Assembly: GCA_038046345.1 (NCBI GenBank)
Contig: JBBSWJ010000017.1
Location: 1-16,926 of the forward strand
Length of the DNA stretch: 16,926 bases
Direction: 5' to 3'
DNA from: Nanobdellota archaeon
GTDB taxonomy: Archaea > Nanobdellota > Nanobdellia > SCGC-AAA011-G17 > JACPNG01
The notes under the pieces were generated by a model that had not been told where the DNA came from, did not search any database, and saw only the letters and a program-made list of their open reading frames with translations. Position 1 is the stretch's first letter; every line of letters starts with the position of its first letter. The position numbers and the translations under genes were made by a program. Positions 1 through 16,926 of the stretch are shown piece by piece.

Positions 1-65
1 AAATGAAATTGTTAATTAAATTCTTTACTTTCTAAATCTTTAAATAGAACTAAATTTTATTAATT

Positions 66-81
66 TATCAACATGTTGTAA
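66..81. promoter_or_regulatory. NrdR box 1
   Basis: tatCAAcATgTTGtaa fits the NrdR-box consensus acaCwAtATaTwGtgt; the core CAACATGTTG is a perfect palindrome; it lies upstream of nrdR-nrdJ. Confidence 0.8.
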
Positions 82-97
82 CTATAAAAAACTATAC

Positions 98-113
98 ATA
101 CAATATGTAGTAC
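98..113. promoter_or_regulatory. NrdR box 2
   Basis: ataCAAtATgTAGtac fits the same consensus, lies 32 bp from box 1 (the typical tandem spacing) and ends 3 bp before the nrdR ATG. Confidence 0.8.
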
Positions 114-116
114 TCA

Positions 117-554
117 ATGAGGTGTCCATTCTGTTTTAATACCACATTCAAGGTAACAGATAAACGGATGTCTCTTAATGATACTATTCGTAGGCGCCGT
201 GAATGCAAAAAATGCAAGAAAAGATTCACAACTTACGAACGTGCAGAGATACCAACATTAGTAATAAAAAAAGATGGACGGCGAGAAAAGTTTGACAGGG
301 AGAAACTGTTAATGGGTATACAAAAAGCTTGTGAAAAAAGAAAGGTTAGCGTTGAAAAAATAGAGCAAATTGTAAATCACATCGAGACAAGAATAAAATT
401 AAGTCATGGTAATGAAGTTAAAACAAAAAAAATTGGTGAAGAAGTTATGAATGCCTTAAAAAAACTTGATAAGGTTGCTTACATTCGTTTTGCTTCTGTC
501 TACAAAGATTTTACTGACACAAAAGATTTTCAAAAGGAGTTAGAGGGATTGTAA
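117..554 (+). CDS. nrdR: Transcriptional repressor NrdR (Zn ribbon + ATP cone)
   Basis: MRCPFC...RRRRECKKCKKRFTTYE zinc ribbon; VIKKDGRREKFDREKL ATP cone; LDKVAYIRFASVY C-terminal motif; TAA directly abuts the RNR ATG. Confidence 0.97.
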   Translation: MRCPFCFNTTFKVTDKRMSLNDTIRRRRECKKCKKRFTTYERAEIPTLVIKKDGRREKFDREKLLMGIQKACEKRKVSVEKIEQIVNHIETRIKLSHGNEVKTKKIGEEVMNALKKLDKVAYIRFASVYKDFTDTKDFQKELEGL

Positions 555-3440: not shown

Positions 3441-3508
3441 TGCTACAACTTTCGTTAACCATCAACTTTAAAAACATTAGTAATTCAGTTATTATGGAGT
3501 TGATTAAT

Positions 3509-3757
3509 ATGTCTGTTGATGTTAAACATGAACGTTGGAAGTGTATTGCTTGCGGTGCTTGTGCAGCAGTTACGCCTAAATTTTGGGTGATGGATGATAA
3601 TGATTTTAAGGCGGACTTAATTAGTAGTTTGCATACTAATATCACTGAAGGTCTTCTTGAGACTAGAACAGTTGATGGTGATGCTCAGGATGAAAAAGAT
3701 CTTAAAGAGTCTGAAGAAGCATGTCCTGTTGAGTGTATTCACGTCAATAAAACTTAA
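3509..3757 (+). CDS. Single-cluster ferredoxin
   Basis: CIACGAC plus distal ACPVECI; start moved to ATG 3509 because GGAGTTGA (SD-like) lies at 3496-3503 and the longer ORF overlaps nrdJ. Confidence 0.88.
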   Translation: MSVDVKHERWKCIACGACAAVTPKFWVMDDNDFKADLISSLHTNITEGLLETRTVDGDAQDEKDLKESEEACPVECIHVNKT

Positions 3758-3781
3758 ATACTTCTGTTTCTATTTTGTCTT

Positions 3782-4534
3782 ATGGACTTATTCCCCCGTT
3801 CCAGTTTAGATAATCGAAAGAACTTTTATAAGCAAGAGTTTTCTGTTGATGCTTTAGATTACTTTTTCTTTATTCATCCTCAATTTTTTGTTATTGATCA
3901 TGGTACTGAAACAAGGATTATTAATGATCCAAAAAAAGCTAATTCTTTACAGATTCTTCCGCCTAACCTTAGTTTTAAAGCTTTGAAAGCAAAATTAATT
4001 ATTGAAACTCCTGAAGATGTTTATTATGATCGTAATCTCTACAAAGATCCAAACATTTGTTTATCATGTAGGAAGTTTGATAGTTGTTTTACTTGTCCTT
4101 ATGGTAATTTTATGGGCCAACAATTAGTTTTTGATATTGATCCGCAGAATATTAATTGTTCTTCTTGTGGGCTTAGTAAGCATACTAATTTTTGTCCTGA
4201 GTGCATACAGCTTGCTGTGAGTAATGCTTTTTTGTTGAAAGAAGAATTATTGTATCGTTTTAGTGATGTTCGTGTTGTTTTTTCTGGTCGTGGTGCTCAT
4301 GTTCATGTCATGGATAGTTCTGCAAGGCGCTTGTCTTTTTCTGATCGTGTTCTTCTTAACAAACAGTTTGCTCATCTTGGTATTGATCAGTTTGTTTCTG
4401 CTGGATCCAGGCTTATTCGTTTGCCGTATTCATTAAATGCATTATCTTCAAGAAGGGTTGTTCCTATTCAGGATTCTTTTGATATTTTTTCAGAAGTTTT
4501 AATTCCTAGTTTTTTGAAGTCAAGCCCGATTTAA
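3782..4534 (+). CDS. Archaeo-eukaryotic primase small-subunit (PriS)-like protein
   Basis: AEP motifs LVFDID, SGRGAHVH, GID and RLIRLPYSLN; a Zn-knuckle-like CSSC...CPEC follows the DxD motif. Confidence 0.82.
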   Translation: MDLFPRSSLDNRKNFYKQEFSVDALDYFFFIHPQFFVIDHGTETRIINDPKKANSLQILPPNLSFKALKAKLIIETPEDVYYDRNLYKDPNICLSCRKFDSCFTCPYGNFMGQQLVFDIDPQNINCSSCGLSKHTNFCPECIQLAVSNAFLLKEELLYRFSDVRVVFSGRGAHVHVMDSSARRLSFSDRVLLNKQFAHLGIDQFVSAGSRLIRLPYSLNALSSRRVVPIQDSFDIFSEVLIPSFLKSSPI

Positions 4535-5098
4535 TATTGATTCGCATGCATTGCAGAATTTAATTCCTATTCTTGATAGTATTCCACCAGAGGATTCACC
4601 TGTAAGATACTCAGGTAGTGGTATATACATTGGGCAGACAGTACCATCATCGCCTAAAGTTTCTTCAATATGGTGTTCTACTTCAGCTAATAAGTGTGCA
4701 AGTTCATGTACTGCAACGCATGCTGTGAGCTTTTGAGCGTGTTCTCCTGTAAAAGCTTCAAGCCATGTTGACACCCATGCAACTCTCTGTTCTGGGTCAG
4801 AATTCCCAGGCATATCTACGAAGAGAGTAAGATTAGTAGGGTAACGGGTAATCCCTAAGTTTAATTCACCTTTACATTTCTGTTCACTTAAATATCTAAT
4901 AATCTTATCATCATCCAGCACTATGCGGGATCGTTCATTGAATTCCCATCTCTCACTATCCGTAAAGATTAAATCATTAAGACCAACAATTTCAGCAAGT
5001 CTATAACTGCCTATTCCTGGAAGTGATTGAATTATTTGTTTTGCTAAACCTTCAAGATTATGATGGTATCCAATGGGTGTTATCACCAAGTTGCTCAT
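4520..5098 (-). CDS. Archaemetzincin-like Zn metallopeptidase, copy A
   Basis: HELAHLLAEVEHH, Met-turn-like CPM and C-terminal FCNAC; TATA-like TTAATAAA 21 bp before the ATG. Confidence 0.72.
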   Translation of the reverse strand: MSNLVITPIGYHHNLEGLAKQIIQSLPGIGSYRLAEIVGLNDLIFTDSERWEFNERSRIVLDDDKIIRYLSEQKCKGELNLGITRYPTNLTLFVDMPGNSDPEQRVAWVSTWLEAFTGEHAQKLTACVAVHELAHLLAEVEHHIEETLGDDGTVCPMYIPLPEYLTGESSGGILSRIGIKFCNACESILNRA

Positions 5099-5204
5099 AC
5101 AGTGCGCAAATGCTAGTTATTTATTAAGCTTACTGCTGTGATTTATTTATGTAAAAACTATTCAGGATTTTTTTTCAGAAGTTTTAATTCCTAGTTTTTT
5201 GAAG

Positions 5205-5786
5205 TCAAGCCCGATTTAATCTTGATTTGCATACATCACAGAATTTAAGTCCTATTATTGATAGTATTTCACCAGAAGATTCACCTGTAAGATCCTGGTA
5301 TGGTATTTGATACATTGGGCAGACAGTGCCATCATCGCTTAAAGTTTCTTTATGATGATGTGCTATTCCAGGAGCTAATAAGTGTGCAAGCTCATGTACT
5401 GCAAAGTATGCTGTGAGTATTTGGGCGTGTTCTCCTGTAAAAGCTTTGAGCCATGTTGACACCCATGCAACTCCTCTTTGAGGTTCATAACTTCCCGACG
5501 TAGCCCGGCAAAGAGTAAGATCAGTAGGGTAATTAGTGATACCTAGGTTTAATTTATCAGAATGTTTGTTTCTGATTAGATATGCCATAATTTTAGTATC
5601 ATCCAACACTATTGGAAGTGGCTCTTTAACATCCCATACTTCATCCCCTGTATAAGTTAAACCATCAGGCTCAACAACGTCAGCAATTCTATAACTACCT
5701 ATTCCTGGAAGTGATTGAGTTATTTGTTTTGCTAAATTTTCAAGGTTATCATTTAGTCCAATAGATGTTATGATCAAACGTGGCAT
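5205..5786 (-). CDS. Archaemetzincin-like Zn metallopeptidase, copy B
   Basis: HELAHLLAPGIAHHH, CPM and FCDVC; clear paralog of 4520..5098 with the same promoter geometry. Confidence 0.72.
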   Translation of the reverse strand: MPRLIITSIGLNDNLENLAKQITQSLPGIGSYRIADVVEPDGLTYTGDEVWDVKEPLPIVLDDTKIMAYLIRNKHSDKLNLGITNYPTDLTLCRATSGSYEPQRGVAWVSTWLKAFTGEHAQILTAYFAVHELAHLLAPGIAHHHKETLSDDGTVCPMYQIPYQDLTGESSGEILSIIGLKFCDVCKSRLNRA

Positions 5787-5836
5787 ATCCCATGCAAATA
5801 CTAGCTATTTATTAATTTTCCTGCTGTGATTTGTTC

Positions 5837-6601
5837 ATGGAAAAAGTATATTTAGTAAGGGTTTCTGAGATATTTCTAAAAGGTAAGAATAGACCGTTTT
5901 TTCAGAAGGCGTTACTTAGGAATATTCGTGCGTGTTTGCAGGCTAATAATATCATTGCTGAGGTTATAAACAAGCATAATCGTATTATTATTAAATCAGA
6001 TCAGAATTGTTTATGTTTAAAAAATGTTTTTGGTATAGCTAATATCTCTAAGGGGGTTATAATTCCTGCTGATTTTATGTTATTAAAAAAAACTATTAAA
6101 TCTTTTTGGGGTGGCAAACCATTTGTTATTGAGACCAGGCGTATTGATAAGTCTTTTTCATTGAGTAGTTTAGAGATCAGTAAAGAAATTGCTGGTTTTC
6201 TTGGTGGTGATGTTTCTTTTAAAGATTATAAAGAATGGTTTGGTGTAGAAATTGATTCTGATGAGTTTTTTGTATTCACTGAAAAAATCCAATGTTATGG
6301 TGGTCTGCCTCTTGGTACTAATGGTTCTGTTGGGGTTTTTGTTCAGGATGAGAATTCTTTAAAGGCTGCTTGGTTGGTAATGCGTCGTGGTTGTAATGTT
6401 ATTCTGTTTGGTATGGATATTGATATTACAAGATTGAAGCAGTTTTCTTATGGTTGTCAAGTAAGAAAACAAGGAAGTATTCCTAAAGATATTTCTGCTA
6501 TTGTTGTTAATGACACTTTAGATAATTTAAGAGATTATGATTTTAATCTTCCAGTCTTTAGGCCTTTAGTTGGGTGTTTTGAAGAAGTCCCTGTATCATA
6601 A
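5837..6601 (+). CDS. ThiI-like THUMP-domain protein with degenerate, shortened PP-loop domain
   Basis: N-terminal SEIFLKGKNRPFF, THUMP region, GGLPLGTNG, MRRGC and PVFRPLVG match ThiI, but SGGxDS is replaced by VFVQDENS; ATG 5837 preferred over TTG 5831. Confidence 0.8.
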   Translation: MEKVYLVRVSEIFLKGKNRPFFQKALLRNIRACLQANNIIAEVINKHNRIIIKSDQNCLCLKNVFGIANISKGVIIPADFMLLKKTIKSFWGGKPFVIETRRIDKSFSLSSLEISKEIAGFLGGDVSFKDYKEWFGVEIDSDEFFVFTEKIQCYGGLPLGTNGSVGVFVQDENSLKAAWLVMRRGCNVILFGMDIDITRLKQFSYGCQVRKQGSIPKDISAIVVNDTLDNLRDYDFNLPVFRPLVGCFEEVPVS

Positions 6602-6948
6602 TCACCATTTTTTACTGTGTCTCTACTTTCTTTCCACATTTCTTCAAGTCTTATTGCAGAGTCTATACCTTTTGTTAATAAATCTTCTTCTTTCCATATA
6701 GAACCAACATCTTGCACATAATTAAATCGTCTGCTTCGGGTGGTGGAGAATGCCATACCTAAGTTTATTACACAACCATGCATAAACCCGTCTGCTTCTG
6801 CCAGATGTAAAGCATCATATTCATTTGCAGCGTGATAAACTCTTGATTCAATTCTTATTGGTGATATAAATATTGATTCGGGTGTATGTGCATACTCCCC
6901 CCAAACTTCAAAATATGGTAGGGGTATCATGTTTTGTTGGATTTCCAT
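6535..6948 (-). CDS. Hypothetical protein
   Basis: 137-codon ORF from ATG 6948 with TTTATAAT 21 bp upstream; no motif recognised; overlaps the thiI-like 3' end by 67 bp. Confidence 0.55.
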   Translation of the reverse strand: MEIQQNMIPLPYFEVWGEYAHTPESIFISPIRIESRVYHAANEYDALHLAEADGFMHGCVINLGMAFSTTRSRRFNYVQDVGSIWKEEDLLTKGIDSAIRLEEMWKESRDTVKNGDYDTGTSSKHPTKGLKTGRLKS

Positions 6949-7009
6949 AAAAACAAACTTAACCCCTTTATTATAAATGTTTCTTCTAAAATTTAAAAAT
7001 AAAAAAGAT

Positions 7010-7819
7010 TTACTTTTTTGCGTTAGGCAAATCTTTCCATGCAAGGTCAAATAAACCGTTTAGTGCGTTTGCAAAGAATGGTGTTGTTATCCATATGCCG
7101 ACATCATAAGTTGGATGTACACTTGCATCGTCCATTACCATGAACATTACTTCTTTGCCGTCAACTATGCAAAATCTTGCTACTATTTTGTCTATGTGTT
7201 TTACTTCTGCTGTTTTTTCTAGTTCCTTTGCTGCTTGTGCAGTTTCCTTGCTTATTGGTGCTGCTATTCTGATTTTGACATTTCTTTTCGCTAACTTTTC
7301 AAACTCTGGTTTTAGTGCATCTATCTTTCTTACCAATCCTTTATTTGTGGTCATGATATTTACGCTTTTGTTTGCGTTTTTTATCATTAGTTCTAAGTGT
7401 GTGTAAAGATTGTGTCTTCCTCTTATTGCGCCAGAAAGATCAGATGGTTCTATAAACTCTATTCCTTCTTTGTGGAGAGCGTTCAGTTCCTTTAATATAT
7501 CTGTCCCTTTTAGTTCGTTTAAGCGGTTTGTTGATTCATCTGCGTGTATTTTTACGTATTTTTTTACACGTTCAACTACTTCTAATGGTTCTACTGCAAT
7601 ATACTTTATTGGCTTCCCAAGCTTCATTACTACAAAACCTTTTTTTTCTAAAGATTCTAGAACATCATATGCTCTGGATCTTGGTACATTACCAATATCG
7701 GACAGCTCACCTGCTGTTGACACACCTCTTGATAAAAGTGCAGTCCATATCCTCACCTCGTATAGGTTGAGATTGAACGCTCTTCTAAGCTTATTTAAAA
7801 AATCTTCTTTTACAATCAT
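7010..7819 (-). CDS. TrmB-family (TrmBL2-like) regulator / chromatin protein
   Basis: FNLNLYE...VPRSRAYDVLESLEKKGF wHTH plus C-terminal PLD-fold region (RFCIVDGKEV...F.NALNGLFDLAW); GGAGG SD at 7830-7834. Confidence 0.9.
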   Translation of the reverse strand: MIVKEDFLNKLRRAFNLNLYEVRIWTALLSRGVSTAGELSDIGNVPRSRAYDVLESLEKKGFVVMKLGKPIKYIAVEPLEVVERVKKYVKIHADESTNRLNELKGTDILKELNALHKEGIEFIEPSDLSGAIRGRHNLYTHLELMIKNANKSVNIMTTNKGLVRKIDALKPEFEKLAKRNVKIRIAAPISKETAQAAKELEKTAEVKHIDKIVARFCIVDGKEVMFMVMDDASVHPTYDVGIWITTPFFANALNGLFDLAWKDLPNAKK

Positions 7820-7911
7820 TCTGTATTTTCCTCCATGCCTCTTTTTTTAACCACTTGTTAATATTAAATGTTATTCCTTACTGTGGTTTGATATCCACTT
7901 AGTATGAATGG

Positions 7912-7939
7912 TGAAAACTCTTCTATATAAAGATTTTCA
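7912..7939 (-). promoter_or_regulatory. TATA box inside a quasi-palindrome upstream of the TrmB-family gene
   Basis: tgaaaa-ctcttctatataaaga-ttttca; TTTATATA on the minus strand at 7924-7931. Confidence 0.55.
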
Positions 7940-7955
7940 TTATTTAATCAAGATA

Positions 7956-8390
7956 TTAGAATTTTTTTTGATTCATTTGGTTTCTTGATGACTTAGTTTG
8001 TTTATTAGTTTCCTCAAATAGCTTATTGATAATATATTTAATACTCTGTTTATTGGTATGAATGAAATTCTTTGTTATCATGAATCCTTCGTATGAAATA
8101 CGATTTCTATAGTCTCTTAATTGTTGTAGGAATTGTCTGGTTTGTTCATTTAATTTATGTTTTTTTGCTACGTAATCTATTAATTCTTGGTGTCCTCCTT
8201 CTCCTCTTATTTTAATGCCTGTTTGTAGTGTGATTGCTTCTAATAGCTTGTGGATTGTATCATAATAATCTACCAGTGTGTTGCTTGGATAGTTTTCTTC
8301 ATTTATTGTCTTTAATCTTTTTAATGTCACGTTAGCCATTTTTATTAATGCTTCAGCTTTTTGTTTGTCCGGTGTTATTTCTATGATCAT
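7956..8390 (-). CDS. HEPN-domain protein (RX4Y variant), module 1
   Basis: All-helical protein with LRDYRNRISYEG; ATGA overlap with the upstream MNT gene. Confidence 0.78.
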   Translation of the reverse strand: MIIEITPDKQKAEALIKMANVTLKRLKTINEENYPSNTLVDYYDTIHKLLEAITLQTGIKIRGEGGHQELIDYVAKKHKLNEQTRQFLQQLRDYRNRISYEGFMITKNFIHTNKQSIKYIINKLFEETNKQTKSSRNQMNQKKF

Positions 8391-8923
8391 TTATACACCT
8401 CTAGGAATCCATAGATTATTATACCGTTTATAATATTATTCTTTAGTTCTGCAGGATAATTTGTAAATTTCTCATTGAAGTGTAACTCAATTTTTCTTTT
8501 AAGCTTTTTTTCAAATGGTTGTAGATTTAAGTATTCTTTTTTTGCTTCAACAAACAAATCTATATCACTCTCCTCAACATCTTCTCCTCGTTGGTAGCTT
8601 CCAAATATCACTATAGATTTTGGTAGTAGTTTTTCTTCAATATAATTTATTATTCCAGATTCTTCTAGTTGGGTGAGATTGTATATCCTTTTATATTTTA
8701 TAAATTGTTTATTTCTGGTTGCCTTGTATACAGGGAATTTTCTCTGCCCTTTTTTTTCTATTTTTTGTTCAATTAGACCTAAACTTATAAGGTTCTTGAG
8801 ATTTTGTTTTGTGGATGTATGCGCAAGTTTACTTTCTTTGCTAATGTCTTTTAGGGTAAATGATCCTATTGGATTATTGAAAAATACGGTTAAGGTTGTT
8901 TGTATACTACTTATTTGTAACAT
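8387..8923 (-). CDS. wHTH-fused minimal nucleotidyltransferase (MNT), module 1
   Basis: IVIFGSYQRGEDVEESDIDLFV (GS-x10-DxD); N-terminal HTH (FTLKDISKESKLAHTSTKQNLKNL). Confidence 0.88.
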   Translation of the reverse strand: MLQISSIQTTLTVFFNNPIGSFTLKDISKESKLAHTSTKQNLKNLISLGLIEQKIEKKGQRKFPVYKATRNKQFIKYKRIYNLTQLEESGIINYIEEKLLPKSIVIFGSYQRGEDVEESDIDLFVEAKKEYLNLQPFEKKLKRKIELHFNEKFTNYPAELKNNIINGIIIYGFLEVYK

Positions 8924-8955
8924 ATGTTACATTAAAGTAACTTAAGCTATTTAAA
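8916..8955 (-). promoter_or_regulatory. MNT1 promoter: TATA plus 16 bp palindromic candidate operator
   Basis: TGTAACATATGTTACA (8916-8931) is a perfect palindrome over the start codon; TTTAAATA on the minus strand at 8948-8955. Confidence 0.7.
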
Positions 8956-8968
8956 GGTTTTGGTGAAA

Positions 8969-10723
8969 TTAATTTTCCTTCCCTCTTTGTTTTTTATAAA
9001 TTCTAACAATGTCCCTTAAAGTAGAAATTTCTCGTAGTGGTTTGTCTAATCTTAAGTTTTTTACTCTTGGAAACCTTAATGCGTACCCCGAATTATATGT
9101 TGGGCTTGCTTGTATTTCCTCGTATGTTATCTCTAAAATAATTTTTGCTTTTACTATTACTTCTCTTCCATGTTCTTCTTGTACTAGTGGTTTTAATAAT
9201 TTAGTCAATTCTAAAAATGTTACCCCTTCGGTTTTTTCCTTTATTCCTGTTCCTACTTTGCCTATTTCTACGAGTTTATTTTCATCCATCACTGCTAATT
9301 TGAAAGAGCTTAGCCATGTTGACCGTTTTCCCTCGCCGTATTCTGCGCCAATGATTACTGCGTCTATTGGTTCAAGTATTGGTTTTACTTTCACTCCATG
9401 TCCTACTCTTGATCCTGGTTTGTAAGCTGCTTGTAAATTCTTTACCATTACTCCTTCTTGTCCTTCCGATAATGCTTCTTCATAGAATTTTCTTGCTTCT
9501 ATTTCATCGCTTGTAATAATTTGTTTTGCTAGAACTAATTCTTTTTTCTTTTCCTTTACGCACTTTTTTAATAATGATCTTCGTTCTTTAAATGGTAATT
9601 CAATAACACTTTTACCGTCTAAATATAATACATCAAAAACATTTATTTCAACTGGGTATTTTTTTGCTATGTCTTCTATGTCATATTTTCTTTTAATTCT
9701 TTGGCTTATTGTCTGAAATGGTAAATAACGCCCAGTTTTTTTATCGTATCCCACTACTTCTGCGTCTAGGATAAAACTTTTTGCTTTTACCTGTTTTTTT
9801 ACAGCTTCTATAACCTCAGGGAATTGTTTTGTTACATTCTCTAATCTTCTTGTATAACAGATTGTTTTTTTACCATCGTTATTGATTAATAATCTCATTC
9901 CGTCGTACTTAACTTCTATCGCAGCTGGTTTTCCAACGGTTTTAAATGCGTCTGCTAAGTTTTCCGCTTTTTGGAATAACATTACATTTAGTGGTTTTCC
10001 AGGCGTGATTGATATTTTCTCAAGAGCTTTTAATCCTTCTTTCTTTGCAATGCCTGCTACTTCGCTAAAATCATTTAAAATATCTAGTGCATGCTGTGTT
10101 GCGTTTACATATTGATCATATACTTTCCTATCAACCTCAAATGTATTATCTTTGTCATCGTACTTGAAATTAATTTCTTTTTCAAAGAAGGCCCATACTA
10201 TTGCATCTCTTATTGATCCTTCTGCGATTCCTATTCTTAGATTTCCTAGAACTATTTTTATTATGTACTTTGCTTCTTTTGGTGTTGCGCTTGTTAATAA
10301 CTCTGTTACTAATCCTATTTTTTTGTCAGTGCTTCCTTTTCCTTCAATGCTTGCAACATTTTGTAAATTTGTAAAAACTTTTTCTACTGTTATGGTAGTA
10401 TGGGCCAAGGTCATTTGTTTTCTTTTCTTCATTAATTCTTCTGTTACTATCCCTAAATCTCCTTCTTTGCTCCATAATTTTTTTATTGTGTCTATACTCT
10501 CTCCTGTTGCATTATGGATTATTTTTAGTGCAGTTTGATCACTTAATCCTAGAACTCTTTCGTCCCATGCTGGAAATACTCTTCCTTCTGATAGCATTAA
10601 TACTGCTTCTAAGTATTTTTGTGGTACTTTTTTTAGAAGCTCTGATAGTATGTATGTTTTTTTTAGTCTCTTGCTTGTTTTTGTTAGTTCTTCAAGTGTT
10701 ATGGTTAAATCTGTAAAGTTCAT
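8969..10723 (-). CDS. lig: ATP-dependent DNA ligase (archaeal type)
   Basis: Motif I EVKYDG, III ILDAEV, IIIa FDVLY, IV EGVMVK, VI ALRFPR..R.DK; N-terminal DNA-binding domain. Confidence 0.96.
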   Translation of the reverse strand: MNFTDLTITLEELTKTSKRLKKTYILSELLKKVPQKYLEAVLMLSEGRVFPAWDERVLGLSDQTALKIIHNATGESIDTIKKLWSKEGDLGIVTEELMKKRKQMTLAHTTITVEKVFTNLQNVASIEGKGSTDKKIGLVTELLTSATPKEAKYIIKIVLGNLRIGIAEGSIRDAIVWAFFEKEINFKYDDKDNTFEVDRKVYDQYVNATQHALDILNDFSEVAGIAKKEGLKALEKISITPGKPLNVMLFQKAENLADAFKTVGKPAAIEVKYDGMRLLINNDGKKTICYTRRLENVTKQFPEVIEAVKKQVKAKSFILDAEVVGYDKKTGRYLPFQTISQRIKRKYDIEDIAKKYPVEINVFDVLYLDGKSVIELPFKERRSLLKKCVKEKKKELVLAKQIITSDEIEARKFYEEALSEGQEGVMVKNLQAAYKPGSRVGHGVKVKPILEPIDAVIIGAEYGEGKRSTWLSSFKLAVMDENKLVEIGKVGTGIKEKTEGVTFLELTKLLKPLVQEEHGREVIVKAKIILEITYEEIQASPTYNSGYALRFPRVKNLRLDKPLREISTLRDIVRIYKKQRGKEN

Positions 10724-10786
10724 GATTGTTAAATATTTATCAACTAATTTAAGGTTTATGGAATGGATAAAAACATGCTTTTGCTA

Positions 10787-12361
10787 TCAATAGTCTGTTT
10801 CATTTTCTATTGGTGGTAAGCCAGGTTCTTTTGGTTTTGTTTTGTATAATTCAGGGTCAATCTTACTTCTAGTTAATCCTTCTTCTATAGGACAAAGTTT
10901 AAAGTTGCTATAATCAAAATCTACTAAAGCACTAGGGTTAGTATGGCTTACAATCGTAACCACATATGGTTGTGTCACACCGGTGATAAGTTCAGATGTT
11001 ATATGAGAATCTGGATGTCTCATTTTAAATTCTACTATTCCATTAGCTAAGAAATTAATAGCAAAATTATAATCTCCAGGAGGAGTGTTCCAGTTGACCC
11101 ATGCATAAGTGCTATAACGATTACTTACGAAAGGCCATGACTCGATAGTACCACTAGCGGAATTATATGCCAGATCATAAAAAAAGGAGTCTCCCGGTAA
11201 GAATTCTAATAATGCAGTAAGTTTAGTTTGATGAATCCCGGAACTTGGGTTAATTTGTGCAACATGGTAAATGCCACTTAATGGTTCTGATCCATGTTCA
11301 TCATGAAATCCAGCAGATTCTGTGTGTTCGATCCATTTATCAGGATCAACACCACCGCTTAAGAAATCGTCATAAAAATCACAACTGCCTAACCTACTAA
11401 TCTTTAGTTCGTCTATAAACCCCGTAAAAAATTGGTTATGCCCCGGAAGACCCCAGCCTACATATGCGTCCTGTCCAGTAAAAGGCATCAGCCCAGTTTT
11501 AGGCTCTGAACCATCAAGCACACCATCAATGTATAATCTCATGGATTCACCATCATAAACTAATTTTATTTTATTCCACGTATTTAACTGCAATTGTGTA
11601 CCACCATATACCTCGTCCCATTGATTGCCTTGACTACTATCTGAGTAAATACCACCTACCAGCGCACCATTTCGTATTGCAAGGAAGTAAGGACCATTTT
11701 TTGAATAAATCATGCCATCATTATCACTTGTTTTTTTTATCCAAGCTTCAATAATTACATTTTTGGTAAGGTCAAGAACCGGTGGTTGTCCTATAAGCAC
11801 AGAACCACCCAGTGTGCTATCAAACTCTATACACGATCCTGAGATACACTCTTCAGCCCAGCTTACTCCGTCATAAGAAAATAATCCTTCTATCCCATGG
11901 ATTACATCAGTTGTAATAACTCCGGTCCCCTCATCAAATGACCAATAGGCTATCAAGTTTGTAGCTTCTTCGCATCGGCTTGTATCATAAAAACATGATT
12001 CAGTACAACCAAGTGTTCCAGCTTCAAATCCTAAACTTTCACATGTTTGCCCGCCTAAATCTGTTCCATCACATTCTTCAATGTCTTGGTTTATTATTCC
12101 ATCACCGCATACAAATGGGTCTATTCCTATTGTGCATCCTCCAGTATCGTATTGGCAGGTTTCAAGACACGAGATTCTTCCTCCCGTAAATCCTAAACTC
12201 TCGCATGTTTCTTCTCCAAGGTCTGTTCCATCACATTCTTCAATTACTTGGTTTAGTACACCATCACCACAATATCCTGGTTGTTCGCATTGTTGTGCTG
12301 TTAGCAGGAGTGATAATGATAATATTGTAAAGAATGATATTTTCACTCTTTTTTTAATCAT
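10787..12361 (-). CDS. Secreted/lipid-anchored protein with two Cys-rich repeats, a LamG-like domain and a second beta-sandwich domain
   Basis: Signal MIKKRVKISFFTILSLSLLLTAQQC; two CGDG..N..IEECDGTDLG..TCESLGF..G...C...C.YDT..C repeats; LIAYWSFDEG...YDGESMRLYIDG...FTGFIDELKI (LamG); start at 12361 has a TATA 25 bp upstream and avoids overlap with the HEPN gene. Confidence 0.85.
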   Translation of the reverse strand: MIKKRVKISFFTILSLSLLLTAQQCEQPGYCGDGVLNQVIEECDGTDLGEETCESLGFTGGRISCLETCQYDTGGCTIGIDPFVCGDGIINQDIEECDGTDLGGQTCESLGFEAGTLGCTESCFYDTSRCEEATNLIAYWSFDEGTGVITTDVIHGIEGLFSYDGVSWAEECISGSCIEFDSTLGGSVLIGQPPVLDLTKNVIIEAWIKKTSDNDGMIYSKNGPYFLAIRNGALVGGIYSDSSQGNQWDEVYGGTQLQLNTWNKIKLVYDGESMRLYIDGVLDGSEPKTGLMPFTGQDAYVGWGLPGHNQFFTGFIDELKISRLGSCDFYDDFLSGGVDPDKWIEHTESAGFHDEHGSEPLSGIYHVAQINPSSGIHQTKLTALLEFLPGDSFFYDLAYNSASGTIESWPFVSNRYSTYAWVNWNTPPGDYNFAINFLANGIVEFKMRHPDSHITSELITGVTQPYVVTIVSHTNPSALVDFDYSNFKLCPIEEGLTRSKIDPELYKTKPKEPGLPPIENETDY

Positions 12362-12426
12362 GATAAGTTTTTGATGGACTAGATGGTATATATAGTTTTT
12401 TGTTTTTACTTTTTTAAAACATTTAA

Positions 12427-12825
12427 TTATTTTATCATTTCTTTTAATTTTTTGAGTAATGGATAGAAGCATGTCTTAGCTATTGATAGTGCATCTTCTG
12501 CTTCAGCTTTTGTTGGGATGTACCCGTAATAATTAATGTTGTGTCTTGTTCTTCTTAGTGTATCTATTAATTTTATTGGTCTCTCTGTTTTTACATTTAA
12601 CATTTCTAGCTCTTTTATTTGTGCTATATGATCTTGAGAGGTTCTTCCTTCTGATATCATTTTGGCATCTCCTAGCATGCGGAAACATTCATATATGTTT
12701 CTTATTATGTTGAATGCTGATTCTTCAGTTAATTGTAATTTTTTTGTGTACTCTAGTTCTTTTTCTGCTGCTTGAATTATGCTTAGTGCATTTTTTGTGT
12801 CTGGATGTTTTACTCTGAAATTCAT
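12427..12825 (-). CDS. HEPN-domain protein (RX4Y variant), module 2
   Basis: LRRTRHNINYYG; ATGA overlap with the upstream MNT gene; same architecture as module 1. Confidence 0.78.
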   Translation of the reverse strand: MNFRVKHPDTKNALSIIQAAEKELEYTKKLQLTEESAFNIIRNIYECFRMLGDAKMISEGRTSQDHIAQIKELEMLNVKTERPIKLIDTLRRTRHNINYYGYIPTKAEAEDALSIAKTCFYPLLKKLKEMIK

Positions 12826-13394
12826 GGTTTTACTTCTAGGAATCCTTCTAGTATGATCCCGTTGGCTATGTTTGAAAATAAGTTTAAATCTATTTTGTTT
12901 CTAGAAAATGTATGTATATTAACTTGAATATTCTTTCTGTAGCCTAAGTATTTTATAGTGCATAATTTTGATATTTCTATTTGTTTGTTGTCAAGAACTT
13001 CTATTGCAATGTCTATATCGCTTTCTTCAGTATCGTCACCCCATCTGTAGCTTCCAAATAGGCTTATTGCTCTTGCTTGGGGTATTGTTTTGTGTATTTT
13101 GTCTAGTATTTCTGATTCGTATATTTTTTCGAGGTTGTATGGTATTTTTTTTGTTGTGGAGTATTTATGTTTTTGATTTGTTGAGATTAGCCATGATTTT
13201 CCAATTATTTCTTTTTGTAGGAATTCTTTTTTTGTAAGGTCTTCAACTGCTTCTTTTGTTGCTGTTTTTGATGTTTTGATTGATTTTGATAGTTCTGTTA
13301 GTCCTATTTTTGTGTTTGGGAATGCGTAAAACCATGCTAAGCATTTTTCATGTGCTTTCCTTTTGGTTTCTATTTTTTTTGTTTTATCTTTCAT
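12822..13394 (-). CDS. wHTH-fused minimal nucleotidyltransferase (MNT), module 2
   Basis: ISLFGSYRWGDDTEESDIDIAI; N-terminal HTH (IGLTELSKSIKTSKTATKEAVEDL); start 13394 lies 20 bp after TTATATAG. Confidence 0.88.
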   Translation of the reverse strand: MKDKTKKIETKRKAHEKCLAWFYAFPNTKIGLTELSKSIKTSKTATKEAVEDLTKKEFLQKEIIGKSWLISTNQKHKYSTTKKIPYNLEKIYESEILDKIHKTIPQARAISLFGSYRWGDDTEESDIDIAIEVLDNKQIEISKLCTIKYLGYRKNIQVNIHTFSRNKIDLNLFSNIANGIILEGFLEVKP

Positions 13395-13479
13395 AGTTAT
13401 GAACTTTTTTAGAACTATATAAGCTTTTCTGTTACCATGCAGTATCAATAAAGCTCATATAAACTTTTTTTAGAACTAT
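13393..13479 (-). promoter_or_regulatory. MNT2 promoter with inverted repeat and duplicated 17-18 bp motif
   Basis: atagtt-N14-aactat (13393-13418); aac(t)6-7agaactat at 13402 and 13462; TATA-like elements at 13415-13422 and 13455-13462. Confidence 0.5.
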
Positions 13480-13503
13480 TAATCAAGACTACGAAAAATA
13501 AAA

Positions 13504-13769
13504 TTATGCTCTTCTTTGTAATAATTCACCAAAGACTTCTTTAAAAGTATCATTAACTACTTTAAAATTATGACAAAAAATAGTAAAAGACTCTCACTTA
13601 CTTTAAATTCCCAAATGTCATCTAAATATATCCAACCACCTCTAGGTATAGTAACTCATACAAAATAATTTTCTTTTAAAAAAACATTTGAATATCTCGT
13701 ATACTTATGGATGGAAGGCGGTTCTCTTGGGTATATCCAGGGAAGGTGTTCTTTGGACTTATCATAGCA
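13504..13769 (-). pseudogene. Probable 3' gene remnant (one in-frame stop, one frameshift), truncated at the fic left site
   Basis: Minus-strand reading CYDKSKEHLPWIYPREPPSIHKYTRYSNVFLKENYFV*VTIPRGGWIYLDDIWEFKVSES / FTIFCHNFKVVNDTFKEVFGELLQRRA*; the TGA at 13656-13658 is GGA in the second repeat copy. Confidence 0.45.
13647..13694 (+). repeat. Direct repeat copy 1 flanking the fic unit
   Basis: tatagtaactcatacaaaataattttcttttaaaaaaacatttgaata matches 14775-14823 with 2 substitutions and 1 indel. Confidence 0.9.
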
Positions 13770-13770
13770 T

Positions 13771-13812
13771 ATTGTCCACAAAATAGAAATGTTTATATAT
13801 TATGTGGACAAT
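13771..13812. repeat. Left palindromic site (A)TTGTCCAC-N24-GTGGACAA(T) enclosing the fic TATA box
   Basis: attgtccaca 13771-13780 and tgtggacaat 13803-13812; TTTATATA at 13792-13799. Confidence 0.88.
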
Positions 13813-13821
13813 AACAGTTGT

Positions 13822-14730
13822 ATGGCATACATTGATAAGATCAAGTCAGGAAAAAAGACATTCTATTACTTAGGAAAGACTATAAGAATTGGCGAAAACA
13901 AATGGAAGAAAATAAGGATTAGATTGGGAGAAAAAAAGCCAACAAAAGAAGAGATTGGGAAAAAACTAAAAGAACTAAAACTTGAAGAGTATAAGTTTTA
14001 CAATAAAGATTTTTTGGATGCTAATAAACTTGAAATTATTGATGATTTTAAGGAAGTATACAACAATCATCTCAATAAAATCCCCAAGACTGCTGTTGAA
14101 AAAGAAGAAGCTGATTTTGTGATTAGATTTACATATAATTCTAATGCGATTGAAGGAAATAGATTAACATTACGGGATACATATTTGATTATCAAGGAAA
14201 AACAAATCCCATCTGGAGCACCAGCAAAGGATTATAACGAAGCAATCAACGGCAAGGAAGCATTTGAATTTATTAAAAAGTACAAAGGAAAATTAACAAC
14301 GGATTTTCTTGAAAAATTAAATGGTATTCTAACAAAGAATACAGATGTAGTTTATTCTGGAAGAATTCGCTTTTTCCCTGTGAAGATTGAGGGCGCAGAT
14401 TTTACGCCCCCTGAACCAGAAAAAGTAAAACCATTGCTTAAAGAGATGATTAAATTTTATTATGAAAATAAGCGTAAAATCCACCCATTTGTTTTAGCTT
14501 GTTTGATTCATGCCCAATTTGTAGAAATTCACCCCTTTGAAGATGGAAATGGAAGAACAGGAAGAGCATTAATGAATTGGAGCTTAATGGAAGCAGCTTA
14601 TCCAAAAGTGTTTGTGCCTGTAAAACTAAGGCAAAAGTATTACGAAGCGATTGATCTTCACAACGAGAAAGACATCAGGGGTTATTGTGAAAAGATGTTT
14701 GAAGTAGTTGTAGAACAATTTAAGCTTTAA
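13822..14730 (+). CDS. fic: Fic-family AMP-transferase (class II, internal inhibitory helix) with basic N-terminal domain
   Basis: HPFEDGNGRTGR active-site motif; SNAIEG fits (S/T)xxxE(G/N); start 13822 lies 22 bp after the TATA box. Confidence 0.92.
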   Translation: MAYIDKIKSGKKTFYYLGKTIRIGENKWKKIRIRLGEKKPTKEEIGKKLKELKLEEYKFYNKDFLDANKLEIIDDFKEVYNNHLNKIPKTAVEKEEADFVIRFTYNSNAIEGNRLTLRDTYLIIKEKQIPSGAPAKDYNEAINGKEAFEFIKKYKGKLTTDFLEKLNGILTKNTDVVYSGRIRFFPVKIEGADFTPPEPEKVKPLLKEMIKFYYENKRKIHPFVLACLIHAQFVEIHPFEDGNGRTGRALMNWSLMEAAYPKVFVPVKLRQKYYEAIDLHNEKDIRGYCEKMFEVVVEQFKL

Positions 14731-14732
14731 TG

Positions 14733-14773
14733 TTGTCCACTTTAAGTAAGGAAAAATTATTTTTGTGGACAAT
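14733..14773. repeat. Right palindromic site TTGTCCAC-N24-GTGGACAA
   Basis: ttgtccac 14733-14740 and gtggacaa 14765-14772; begins 2 bp after the fic stop codon. Confidence 0.88.
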
Positions 14774-14774
14774 T

Positions 14775-14823
14775 TATAGTAACTCCTACAAAATAATTTT
14801 CTTTTTAAAAAAACATTTAAATA
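14775..14823 (+). repeat. Direct repeat copy 2; contains the TATA box of the next gene
   Basis: tatagtaactcctacaaaataattttctttttaaaaaaacatttaaata; TTTAAATA at 14816-14823 lies 21 bp before ATG 14845. Confidence 0.9.
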
Positions 14824-14844
14824 CGAGTGTTATCATTTAATCTT

Positions 14845-15588
14845 ATGACCTTAAAAAAAGTTCAAGATCAATTCAGAGCTTCTCCACAATATAAGCATTT
14901 AGTTAGAACATCAAAAGATTGGGGGAAGCCTAATAACAAACAGGATCAGAAGTATACAGAACAGCGTGAACCATCAAGATTTTTTAGTATGGCTTCCAGG
15001 GATCGTGTAATTGTTTTGATCGTAGTTTTACTAACAATTTTTTCAATAGCTTATTTTGTTGTTCGTCCTGCTGTTGTTGGTTATGGTGTTTATGATGATA
15101 TTCAAAGCTCTGGATTATCCTCAGTGGATTATACTGATCAATTAGTTGCACTTGATACTAGGATTACAGATCTTGCTTCTGGCTTGAATTCATGTAATGA
15201 TCTAACTAGTGGGCTTCGTGATGAAATAAAAACTGTTACTTCCAAACTTGATGTATGTGAAGATGATCGCAATTCTATTCGGTATACTCTAGCTTCTGTT
15301 AGAGCCGATCGGAATACAGAAGCAGATGAGTTACGTAGCGATTTAAGAAATAAGGATACTCTTGTTGAATCTTTAAAATATGAACGAGATGTTGCAGTTG
15401 CAGCTCTTGAAGAAGAGAAAGGACGTGCAGATAGTGCTTGGACAGATTATAATACAATCGCAAAAAACACTGCTAAGAATATTTGTTGTAAAAAAAAGGT
15501 TGATGATAGATCAATTTCTGGTTTTGTTATTATAGACAACATGGTATCGTGTGTTAGTTCTGGTGGCACTTCAATTTCTTGCGAATAA
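14845..15588 (+). CDS. Membrane-anchored coiled-coil protein, function unknown
   Basis: One hydrophobic segment (VIVLIVVLLTIFSIAYFVV), a long heptad-like region and a C-terminal Cys cluster (ICCKKK...SCVS...SCE). Confidence 0.75.
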   Translation: MTLKKVQDQFRASPQYKHLVRTSKDWGKPNNKQDQKYTEQREPSRFFSMASRDRVIVLIVVLLTIFSIAYFVVRPAVVGYGVYDDIQSSGLSSVDYTDQLVALDTRITDLASGLNSCNDLTSGLRDEIKTVTSKLDVCEDDRNSIRYTLASVRADRNTEADELRSDLRNKDTLVESLKYERDVAVAALEEEKGRADSAWTDYNTIAKNTAKNICCKKKVDDRSISGFVIIDNMVSCVSSGGTSISCE

Positions 15589-15621
15589 ACTTTAAATAGT
15601 AGTTACTACAGTAATCTAATA

Positions 15622-16926
15622 ATGAACAAAAGTTTATTATTTATATTAATGTTTTTGTTGATAATAATTTTAGGTTGCTCTCATAAAGATAGTTGTGGGG
15701 ATAATACTTGTCAATTTGCTGAGAAAATATTTGATTCTTGTCCTGCTGATTGCGAAGAAAAAACAGCTGTCAATGTTACTCAACCACAAACAGAGTCTCC
15801 ACCAGAAGAACCACCACCAATAGGGGGGAATACATCTTCAGTGGTTTATTGCGGTGATGGTACTTGTGATGGTGATGAAGACACATTAACTTGTCCGAAA
15901 GATTGTCTTGAAGGTTATATTCCTTCGTGTGGTAATGGTATTTGTGAAGGGAGTCGTAGTGAGTCTGTAAGTACTTGTCCTGCTGACTGTAGGCGAAGTG
16001 GTGGCGGTGGCGGTGGTGGAGGCGGAGGTGGAGGCGGAGGTGGTGGTAGTACTCCAGATCCTGGTACTTCTCCTCCTGCATCTTCGTGTGGTAATGGTGT
16101 TTGTGATTCTGATGAGACTTCGGCATCTTGTCCTGCTGATTGTGTAACTCCGCCAGTTGGGATTCCATGTGGTAATGGTGTTTGTGATTCTGATGAGACT
16201 TCGGCATCTTGTCCTGCTGATTGTGGTGTAGCTGGTGTTTGCGGTGATGGTATTATTAATTTAGCGGAAGACTGTGATGGTACTTCATTAAGTGATGAAA
16301 CATGTGCTTCTCAAAGCCATCCTGGGGGCGGGGTTCTTTCTTGCTATGCTGTAGGTACAGTGAATGAATGTAGGTTTGATATCTCGGTTTGCTGTATTGA
16401 TATTGATGTTGATGGTTATGGTAATAATTGTGATTTAGGTCTTGATTGTGATGATTCTGATGAGTTTGCTAATCCTGGAGCAGTTGAGTTTTGTGATAGT
16501 GTTGACGATGATTGTGATGGAGTCATTGATGATGGTGTGTTATTTACTTTTTATGCTGATGTAGATGGTGATGGTTTTGGTAATTCTGCTTCAACTGTTG
16601 ATGCTTGTTCTGCTCCTGCTGGTTTTACTGATCAGTCTGGTGATTGTGATGATGGTAATGCGTTAGTTAGTCCTGGTGGTGTTGAGGTTTGTGATGGTGC
16701 TGATAATGATTGTGACAGCTCGGTTGATGATGGTGTTTTGTTGAGTTTCTTTACTGATGGTGATGGTGATGGTTATGGTACTGCTCCTAGTATTGATGCT
16801 TGTTCTGCTCCTGCTGGTTTTAGTGCTGTGGGTGGTGATTGTGATGATTCTAATGCTTTAGTTAGTCCTGTTGGTGTTGAGGTTTGTGATGGTGCTGATA
16901 ATGATTGTGACAGCTCGGTTGATGAT
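15622..16926 (+). CDS. Large Cys/Asp-rich surface lipoprotein (5' part; runs off the window)
   Basis: Open frame of 435 codons from ATG 15622 to the window end; signal MNKSLLFILMFLLIIILGC (Cys19); CGNGxCxxxExxxxCPxDC repeats, Gly16 linker, and DCDD..A.VSPG.VEVCDG.DNDCD...DD repeats with D.DGDGFG (MopE-like putative metal-binding motif); TTTAAATA at 15591-15598. Confidence 0.92.
   Translation, partial: MNKSLLFILMFLLIIILGCSHKDSCGDNTCQFAEKIFDSCPADCEEKTAVNVTQPQTESPPEEPPPIGGNTSSVVYCGDGTCDGDEDTLTCPKDCLEGYIPSCGNGICEGSRSESVSTCPADCRRSGGGGGGGGGGGGGGGGSTPDPGTSPPASSCGNGVCDSDETSASCPADCVTPPVGIPCGNGVCDSDETSASCPADCGVAGVCGDGIINLAEDCDGTSLSDETCASQSHPGGGVLSCYAVGTVNECRFDISVCCIDIDVDGYGNNCDLGLDCDDSDEFANPGAVEFCDSVDDDCDGVIDDGVLFTFYADVDGDGFGNSASTVDACSAPAGFTDQSGDCDDGNALVSPGGVEVCDGADNDCDSSVDDGVLLSFFTDGDGDGYGTAPSIDACSAPAGFSAVGGDCDDSNALVSPVGVEVCDGADNDCDSSVDD
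16087..16225 (+). repeat. Intragenic perfect 58 bp direct repeat (period 81 bp)
   Basis: tgtggtaatggtgtttgtgattctgatgagacttcggcatcttgtcctgctgattgtg at 16087 and 16168. Confidence 0.93.
16598..16926 (+). repeat. Intragenic 195 bp (65 aa) repeat units
   Basis: ttgatgcttgttctgctcctgctggtttta at 16598 and 16793; 54 bp identical block at 16678-16731 and 16873-16926. Confidence 0.92.

Follow-up and report, generated by a model that had tools for sequence, protein, structure and literature searches.

We analyzed a stretch of DNA of 16,926 nucleotides (nt) from a Nanobdellota archaeon (GenBank assembly GCA_038046345.1, contig JBBSWJ010000017.1, positions 1 to 16,926 of the forward strand; the whole stretch is termed the window herein), in which a gene encoding a Fic protein is bracketed by two modules, each built of two half-sites held at a fixed distance. 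The 5′ module encloses the fic promoter, and the 3′ module begins directly behind the fic stop codon. This arrangement is conserved with the gene among its orthologues, changes its half-site together with the N-terminal domain of the protein among paralogues, and travels with the gene between genomes. The reading that we favor, with moderate confidence, is that both modules are cognate operators for the N-terminal domain of Fic itself, the 5′ module serving autorepression and the 3′ module acting as a second anchor, either for a loop or for a roadblock.

Geometry and conservation of the paired half-sites

In the window, the half-site TTGTCCAC is present in exactly four copies, at positions 13772 (+), 13804 (−), 14733 (+), and 14765 (−), against an expectation of 0.34 copies, and none of 200 shuffled sequences reached four. 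The copies form two inverted pairs, TTGTCCAC-N24-GTGGACAA, with a spacer of 24 nt in both, and all details given for them in the original prediction, which had been made from the DNA letters alone, proved correct. The 5′ module (13772 to 13811, + strand; half-sites TTGTCCAC at 13772 to 13779 and GTGGACAA at 13804 to 13811) has a TATA box at its center (tttatata, 13792 to 13799) and ends 10 nt before the fic ATG (13822), a start codon (MAY...) that is common to all orthologues. The 3′ module (14733 to 14772, + strand) starts 2 nt past the fic stop codon TAA (14728 to 14730) and has the half-sites and the 24-nt spacing of the 5′ module, around a spacer that is not conserved and contains no TATA box. 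The outer half-sites lengthen to a perfect inverted repeat of 13 nt (ATTGTCCACAAAA at 13771 to 13783 and the reverse complement of 14761 to 14773), which had likewise been predicted. Across the whole genome of 821 kb, the 8-mer TTGTCCAC is not enriched (13 copies versus 16 expected), and its paired form is found solely at fic, in agreement with the earlier observation that the motif occurs nowhere else in the window. A search of Rfam returned nothing at the cassette.

A search of 240 genomes of the order for TTGTCCAC-N(18-30)-GTGGACAA found the pattern in 22 genomes, always with a spacer of 23 to 24 nt, compared to a single genome for the reversed-pattern control. Homologues of the gene do carry such flanks: nearly all of the matches adjoin a Fic orthologue that is 72 to 91% identical to the Fic protein of the window. 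Scanning metagenomes for the pattern yielded 120 matches that were mostly due to chance in unrelated, often high-GC contigs, with a Fic gene present in 20 only. Among the 54 full orthologues in species-representative genomes (clade A), the 5′ pair was exact in 52 and differed by one mismatch in the remaining 2, and the consensus of its spacer, AAAATAGAAAnnTTTATATAnnAT, which reads as a B recognition element (BRE) plus TATA box, was kept in all orthologues. The 3′ pair (with up to two mismatches) was detected in about 40 of the 54, with a spacer of 23 to 24 nt. Since the sequence of the 3′ spacer varies while its length stays at 23 to 24 nt, the 3′ module appears to be under selection for putative binding and not for promoter activity.

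The 3′ module takes different forms within clade A. In subclade A2 (proteins of 305 to 307 amino acids), it extends over the final codons and is a direct, though degenerate, copy of the 5′ module; at loci L122 and L247, the direct copy is nearly perfect. In subclade A1, to which the window belongs, the 3′ spacer either shows no relation to that of the 5′ module or looks like its inverted copy, clearly so at locus L036. These direct and inverted cases suggest that the 3′ module has repeatedly been derived from the 5′ module, with only half-sites and spacing retained thereafter. One sublineage has a conserved element, GC rich and about 130 nt long, directly upstream of the 5′ module (L114, 12674 to 12853, − strand; L204, 2438 to 2617; L235, L236, and L239, 1271 to 1450). 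This element contains the hairpin CCTCCGC-TTTAT-GCGGAGG, has no match in Rfam, and is missing from the window.

The Fic protein and its putative DNA-binding domain

The fic gene (13822 to 14730, + strand) encodes a protein of 302 amino acids, plus the stop codon, with a match to the Pfam Fic family (9e-21; PF02661, 75 bits versus a cutoff of 24) as its only domain match. The active-site motif HPFEDGNGRTGR (residues 237 to 248; 14530 to 14565, + strand) is intact, fits HPFx[D/E]GN[G/K]R, and is invariant in 36 sequences. An inhibitory motif, S107-x3-E111-G112 (14140 to 14157, + strand), reads S107-N-A-I-E111-G112, belongs to the same chain, and precedes the core, with N108 to N113 invariant in the alignment. 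The nearest solved relative by sequence is FICD (6e-39). By motif and sequence, the protein is a true class II (FICD-like) Fic/Fido AMPylase, with its activity predicted; the class is assigned because the inhibitory motif stands N-terminal to the core.

The N-terminal domain (residues 1 to 60; 13822 to 14001, + strand) matches no Pfam or NCBIfam model. AlphaFold2, supplied with an alignment of 36 family members, predicted a three-stranded antiparallel sheet (residues 2 to 9, 12 to 24, and 27 to 36) that is followed by a long helix (residues 42 to 60), i.e., a β3-α fold, with a predicted local distance difference test (pLDDT) value of ∼90. A profile of the domain retrieved 110 clusters from 1.84 billion representatives, comprising Fic proteins, fragments, fusions to phosphoenolpyruvate (PEP)-utilizer proteins of about 565 amino acids, and a fusion to a NuoE-like 2Fe-2S protein (P0044, P0047, P0049, P0087, and P0090; loci L208 and L210). 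PEP-utilizer proteins homologous to these in genomes G154 and G010 carry a MerR/excisionase-type helix-turn-helix (HTH) in the same N-terminal position. Given the confident β3-α model, the fusions to unrelated enzymes, and the swap for an HTH in homologues, the domain looks like a separate, putative DNA-binding module. A search of the ESM Atlas with the domain gave no usable match, and a weak profile match (9e-5) to an “integrase repeat unit” helicase (P0092) resembles a match to a short W/G motif. Kinship with IS1634 was considered and rejected, since ten profile matches of non-Fic length (including all four of 563 to 573 amino acids) have no Pfam transposase domain.

Of the 240 genomes of the order, 150 contain Fic proteins with this N-terminal domain, at most nine matches being found in any one of them. 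Paralogues that are 30 to 54% identical keep the geometry and swap the half-sites (TGTGCACA, TGGGCACA, GTCTACA, GTGACCAC, and others). In clade B (49 to 54% identical), all 19 genes have TGTGCACA-N22-24-TGTGCCCA around the TATA box, 11 to 12 nt before the ATG; at the 3′ end, a full pair with the same spacing lies across the stop codon in 10 of the 19 genes, and at least one half-site is present in about 16. Distant paralogues (33 to 40% identical) carry TGGGCACA/TGTGCCCA, TGGGTACA/TGTACCCA, CCCCTACA/TGTAGGGG, or CGTCTACA/TGTAGACG, the last with full 3′ pairs in several genes, and one distant subgroup has direct GTGGACAA repeats and a single 3′ copy. The second paralogue in the genome of the window (contig C29, 32% identical) has GGTGACCAC-N22-GTGGTCACC around its TATA box, and three genomes (G052, G077, and G156) contain three paralogues apiece, with three different site types in each genome. 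The position of the sites relative to the gene was counted for 39 family genes in which the 5′ pair had been detected automatically: in 37 of them, the distance from the end of the right arm to the ATG is 10 to 12 nt, and the cognate 8-mer is present between −15 and +60 nt of the stop codon in 20, compared to 66 of 2,412 control windows.

The class of the half-site varies in step with residues of the second strand of the N-terminal domain (LGKTIR in the window). A threonine at position 20 goes with the half-site core GTCCAC in clade A and in the distant subgroup with direct repeats, an asparagine with G(T/G)GCAC in clade B and in one distant subgroup, and a serine with GTCTAC in a further subgroup. 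Each of these residue-half-site pairings recurs in at least two subgroups that share little identity with one another.

Because the motif pair is absent elsewhere in each genome, paralogues differ in their site type, and the modules move with the gene, we propose the N-terminal domain of Fic as the putative reader of the modules. In the proposed mechanism, one half-site of the 5′ module is located just upstream of the BRE/TATA and the other between the TATA box and the start of a transcript that is predicted to be leaderless on the basis of the usual archaeal TATA-to-start distance; with a start predicted at the ATG, the right half-site would lie at about −18 to −11. Fic bound to the 5′ module would exclude TBP, TFB, and RNA polymerase, resulting in negative autoregulation. 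The 3′ module would be a promoterless copy that binds the same protein, presumably in the same mode, since its arms and spacing are conserved and its spacer is free. It could pair with the 5′ module to form a gene loop; alternatively, it might serve as a roadblock against transcription through the 3′ end, thereby insulating a potentially harmful gene in arbitrary transcriptional contexts. The modules could also hold Fic inactive, by analogy with CbFic2, whose activity is switched by DNA binding. Paired operators that loop out the gene were one of two explanations offered in the original prediction; the fixed BRE/TATA position, the conservation with the gene, and the change with the N-terminal domain of the paralogue speak for the operator part, and looping is as hypothetical as before.

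Several observations weigh against operators that are read by Fic. The N-terminal domain has no significant sequence or structural match to known DNA-binding domains: the best E value of Foldseek against the PDB was 0.67, the best Z score of a wide search with VIA-align was 5.7, and an AP2 domain (6sy0, Z score of 4.4) and an integrase arm domain (3jtz, Z score of 4.2) appeared only among unrelated rows at noise level. The co-variation of residue and site is confounded by shared descent. The arm spacing ranges from N20 to N29 between clades, and the half-sites are direct, not inverted, in one subgroup, which does not easily fit a rigid symmetric dimer. At locus L014 (G037:C25), both 3′ arms are changed symmetrically (TTATCCAC...GTGGATAA) and the 5′ module is still TTGTCCAC, a double change that fits base pairing or arm-to-arm copying and falls outside the operator model. 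In addition, we know of no archaeal precedent for the role of the 3′ site.

Mobility of the cassette and alternative explanations

The gene and its two modules form a self-contained cassette that has spread horizontally among Woesearchaeota. The Fic protein of the window is 83 to 87% identical to those of five genomes (G146, G068, G017, G140, and G037) whose DNA ligase is 45 to 52% identical to that of the window, and the clade-A cassette was present in none of 16 genomes of the same family. Taken across the families at that level of DNA ligase identity, Fic is 83 to 91% identical. Flanks are unrelated between loci, and there is no conserved neighboring gene. In two pairs of similar cassettes (L197/L254, 92% identical, and L139/L157, 91% identical), divergence begins directly beside TA plus half-site on both sides; in a third pair (L139/L253, 97% identical), a common left flank is broken by a 50-bp indel that abuts the 5′ module, and the right flanks part from 7 nt past the 3′ module. 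This TA is part of the site, and the inner half-sites carry it too. Most other pairs are near synonymous saturation, and there, a sharp homology edge marks the end of constraint only.

In the window, the cassette is flanked by a direct repeat of 48/49 bp that has just two copies in the genome. The right copy (14775 to 14823, + strand) contains the TATA-like sequence TTTAAATA (14814 to 14821) of the downstream gene (ATG at 14845), located 42 nt past the 3′ module. The left copy (13647 to 13694, + strand) is a copy of the promoter region of this gene with a mutated TATA box (TTTGAATA) and faces into the cassette. These copies suggest that the cassette was inserted in the promoter region of the downstream gene, with 49 bp of the target duplicated. 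The segment of 77 nt between the left repeat and the cassette (13695 to 13771, + strand) would be part of the inserted DNA; it has no match at other loci or elsewhere in the same genome.

Locus-specific flanking direct repeats of 20 to 68 bp were found at 8 of 68 distinct clade-A loci (49 bp in the window, at least 50 bp in G140, 56 bp in L232, 68 bp in G114, 30 bp in L241, 29 bp in G146, 26 bp in L252, and 20 bp in L265), compared to none of 300 random pairs of segments spaced 906 nt apart in the genome of the window, counted at a threshold of 20 shared nt or more. The inner ends of the repeats are located 1 to 77 nt outside the 5′ module and 2 to 72 nt past the 3′ end, and no tRNA gene was found at any of the repeats. 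Tandem gene duplications, repeat-rich stretches, and a few matches of 24 to 26 nt aside, the fic repeat is the only one in its genome that clearly brackets a unique insert. The window itself contains a tandem duplication (4485 to 5748) with a period of 685 to 688 nt, two open reading frames (ORFs) of 192 and 193 amino acids, and blocks that are 91 to 97% identical. A short target duplication of fixed length was not detected, as matches of k-mers of at least 3 nt were not above those of permuted flanks for 47 cassettes. Since the repeat lengths vary from 20 to 68 bp and the inner ends lie 1 to 77 nt outside the sites, the inserted DNA was apparently not cut at the half-sites. The insertions look as if a DNA fragment had been captured and a long stretch of the target, variable in length, duplicated; replicative template switching or the fill-in of widely staggered breaks would be possible routes.

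Decay products of the cassette were also observed. The genome of the window contains a decayed remnant of a second clade-A cassette (G000:C19:12100-12230), in which a degraded 5′ module is followed by the first 25 codons (80% identical to the Fic protein of the window) and then by unrelated sequence. At L119 (7780 to 7990), a 5′ module precedes a stand-alone ORF of about 47 codons that encodes the N-terminal domain only, L202 (5360 to 5577) retains the final 57 codons together with the 3′ module, and solo promoter-like modules without fic are present at L096, L150, G030, G085, and G065. One other gene was seen between modules: in genome G077 (L031; G077:C46:627-2656), a third module (627 to 665) that is alike at 35 of 39 nt to the fic 3′ module (2618 to 2656) brackets with it a gene of 404 amino acids with an ATPase-like N terminus, which has the same direction as fic.

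Empty-site alleles and inversions, which had been suggested as signs of a mobile cassette, were not seen. In G142, a cassette-free genome from the genus of G140, the left flank is common up to about 20 nt before the repeat of G140 and then diverges, leaving no clean empty site, and the 16 genomes of the same family contain no usable orthologue of the downstream gene for such a comparison. At every locus, the ATG is located 10 to 12 nt from the promoter-bearing module, so that no inverted state was observed. Horizontal mobility of the cassette is supported by the similarity of Fic far above that of a housekeeping protein, the unrelated flanks, the flanking duplications, and the remnants and solo sites; a function of the half-sites as recombination sites is not established. 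Of the mobile or recombination cassette that was the other explanation offered originally, the mobility is supported, and the half-sites as recombination ends lack both a short target duplication and a consistently linked recombinase.

The alternative that fares best is that the modules are the terminal inverted repeats of a mobile element that is moved by a recombinase in trans or by Fic itself, with the overlap with the promoter being secondary; we regard it as unlikely, though worth weighing. Some insertion sequences have the transposase promoter inside one end. The layout is like that of an insertion sequence, with a 40-bp module at each end (inverted in the subclade of the window and in clade B), a gene that fills the interior, and homology between copies that ends at the outer half-sites. 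The patchy distribution, a Fic protein far more alike across families than DNA ligase, the flanking duplications at 8 of 68 loci, the solo modules and truncated remnants, the second gene between near-identical 3′ modules in G077, and the rearrangement breakpoints that abut the sites in the cassette pairs of 91 to 97% identity would all be expected of such an element. However, the Fic protein contains no DDE, HUH, serine, or tyrosine recombinase domain, and no transposase or recombinase domain is encoded by the main ORFs of the window, as had been noted before. A tyrosine recombinase is not consistently linked to the cassette, with a gene within about 1 kb in one of five genomes checked and not in the other four (the exception is the complete genome G017, in which the gene, C1:625838-626317, is located about 1 kb from the 3′ module). 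The lack of a short fixed-length target duplication and the ends of the long duplications, which argue against cutting at the sites, also count against the modules as element ends. Furthermore, about a quarter of the intact copies lack the 3′ module, many clade-B genes have it as one half-site only, and its orientation is direct in one subclade and inverted in another. The homology edges carry little weight here, since neutral flanks would be unrecognizable anyway for the majority of pairs near synonymous saturation.

Still less probable, and drawn by analogy, is a selfish element in which the modules would dock inactive Fic dimers, in the manner of the DNA-induced dimer switch of CbFic2 and FICD, and loss of or damage to the cassette DNA would free the active enzyme, with the DNA acting as the antidote; the protein-bound ends might aid capture into new loci and thereby yield the duplications of 20 to 68 bp. 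We consider it quite improbable that the reader of the sites is not Fic but a host transcription factor encoded at an unlinked locus. Other regulators are encoded, such as a TrmB-family protein in the window (7010 to 7819), but the genome contains no further copy of the paired motif, which moves with the gene into unrelated genomes, and the different half-sites of the paralogues in one genome would require a separate unlinked factor for each. Very improbable are half-sites that function as hairpins, with an mRNA stem-loop (terminator or stabilizer) at the 3′ end and a DNA cruciform at the 5′ end, since, although the 3′ region folds at −14.4 kcal/mol (z-score of −3.5 compared to shuffles), a T-run precedes the 3′ arm in the window, and the double change in the 3′ arms of L014 is compensatory, the 5′ pair is upstream of the predicted transcription start and hence outside the mRNA, many paralogues have a single half-site past the stop codon, the direct repeats of one subgroup cannot pair, loops of 23 to 24 nt with free sequence and fixed length are unlike those of terminator hairpins, and the same 8-mer is required at both gene ends and follows the protein clade.

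Among the other genes of the window, two pairs of nucleotidyltransferase (MNT-like) and HEPN-type genes (7956 to 8923 and 12427 to 13448) flank the genes for DNA ligase and a LamG protein. One of these pairs adjoins the fic insertion, and similar modules are found near cassette or solo sites in L013 and L016. A gene for an NrdR-like repressor (zinc ribbon plus ATP-cone; 117 to 554) is located directly upstream of the ribonucleotide reductase gene.

Implications and comparison with known systems

To our knowledge, almost no gene regulation has been studied in DPANN archaea. If operators read by Fic itself are the correct explanation, the N-terminal domains would represent a new family of small all-β DNA-binding domains that have eight or more natural specificities and, apparently, a simple relation of residue to base, and matched sets of protein and site could serve as orthogonal repressor-operator pairs. 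A gene bracketed by putative operators for its own product would make promoter-terminator looping or roadblock insulation testable in archaea, and it suggests how a potentially toxic AMPylase could travel between genomes under its own control, without an antitoxin gene. The recurrent long, variable flanking duplications, in turn, would point to an insertion mechanism in reduced genomes beyond known transposition.

Several known types of element were compared with the cassette and rejected. As originally stated, the geometry matches neither dif nor attC. A dif/Xer site has two 11-nt arms around 6 to 8 nt, whereas the arms are 8 to 10 nt and the spacer 23 to 24 nt long here, and an integron cassette, which is promoterless and has a single attC at its 3′ end beside intI/attI, does not agree with a gene that has its own promoter within the 5′ module, sites at both ends, and no adjacent integrase. 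Repetitive extragenic palindromic (REP) elements and miniature inverted-repeat transposable elements (MITEs) have many dispersed copies, whereas the pair is found only at fic in the genome of 821 kb.

The transposase of insertion sequences can bind the terminal inverted repeats and repress its own promoter in one end. The cassette resembles these elements in an N-terminal domain that is (putatively) matched to sites at both ends, a promoter inside the 5′ end, homology between copies that stops at the ends, remnants and solo ends, and a perfect 13-nt terminal inverted repeat with a 40-bp module at both ends. It differs from them in its imprecise insert ends and low copy number, and a classification as an insertion sequence or transposon was rejected, despite the terminal inverted repeats, since there is no encoded recombinase and no fixed short target duplication.

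The phd-doc operon is an autoregulated toxin-antitoxin operon, and Doc has a related Fido fold. Like toxin-antitoxin operons, the cassette combines a potentially toxic enzyme with palindromic (here putative) operators at the promoter, is compact and mobile, and often exists in many divergent copies per genome. In contrast to them, it has no antitoxin gene, inhibition would be intramolecular (S-x3-E-G helix), the putative DNA-binding function is fused to the enzyme, and a second operator module lies past the stop codon. A type II toxin-antitoxin module was rejected because there is no conserved neighboring gene and the flanks are unrelated between loci. The combination is that of a (putatively) autoregulated enzyme-regulator fusion and a mobile toxin-like module. 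Two features of the cassette, the putative operator module behind the stop codon and the long, variable flanking duplications, go beyond this combination.

Looping through auxiliary operators is established for lac O1/O2 and gal OE/OI, and promoter-terminator gene loops are found in eukaryotes. As in these systems, two separated modules would serve one regulator (putatively, in this case), the first at the promoter and the second at the gene end, at a distance of about 0.95 kb. Unlike in lac and gal, the distal module is located exactly at the stop codon, the regulator would be the product of the gene itself, and looping is hypothetical.

Searched titles and abstracts contained no Fic gene with operators at both ends, and the literature search returned nothing that links Fic proteins to Woesearchaeota or DPANN archaea. 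In CbFic2 from Coxiella, DNA binding through an HTH is reported to drive dimerization and to switch the enzyme between AMPylation and deAMPylation (PMC10628234). CbFic2 and the SoFic-type “Fic domain containing transcriptional regulator” (PDB 3eqx) share with the Fic protein of the window the combination of an AMPylase core and a DNA-binding module, which is putative in the latter. In contrast to both, the putative module of the window protein is N-terminal, consists of an all-β domain plus one helix without a Pfam or NCBIfam model, and is apparently sequence specific for the sites that bracket its own gene.

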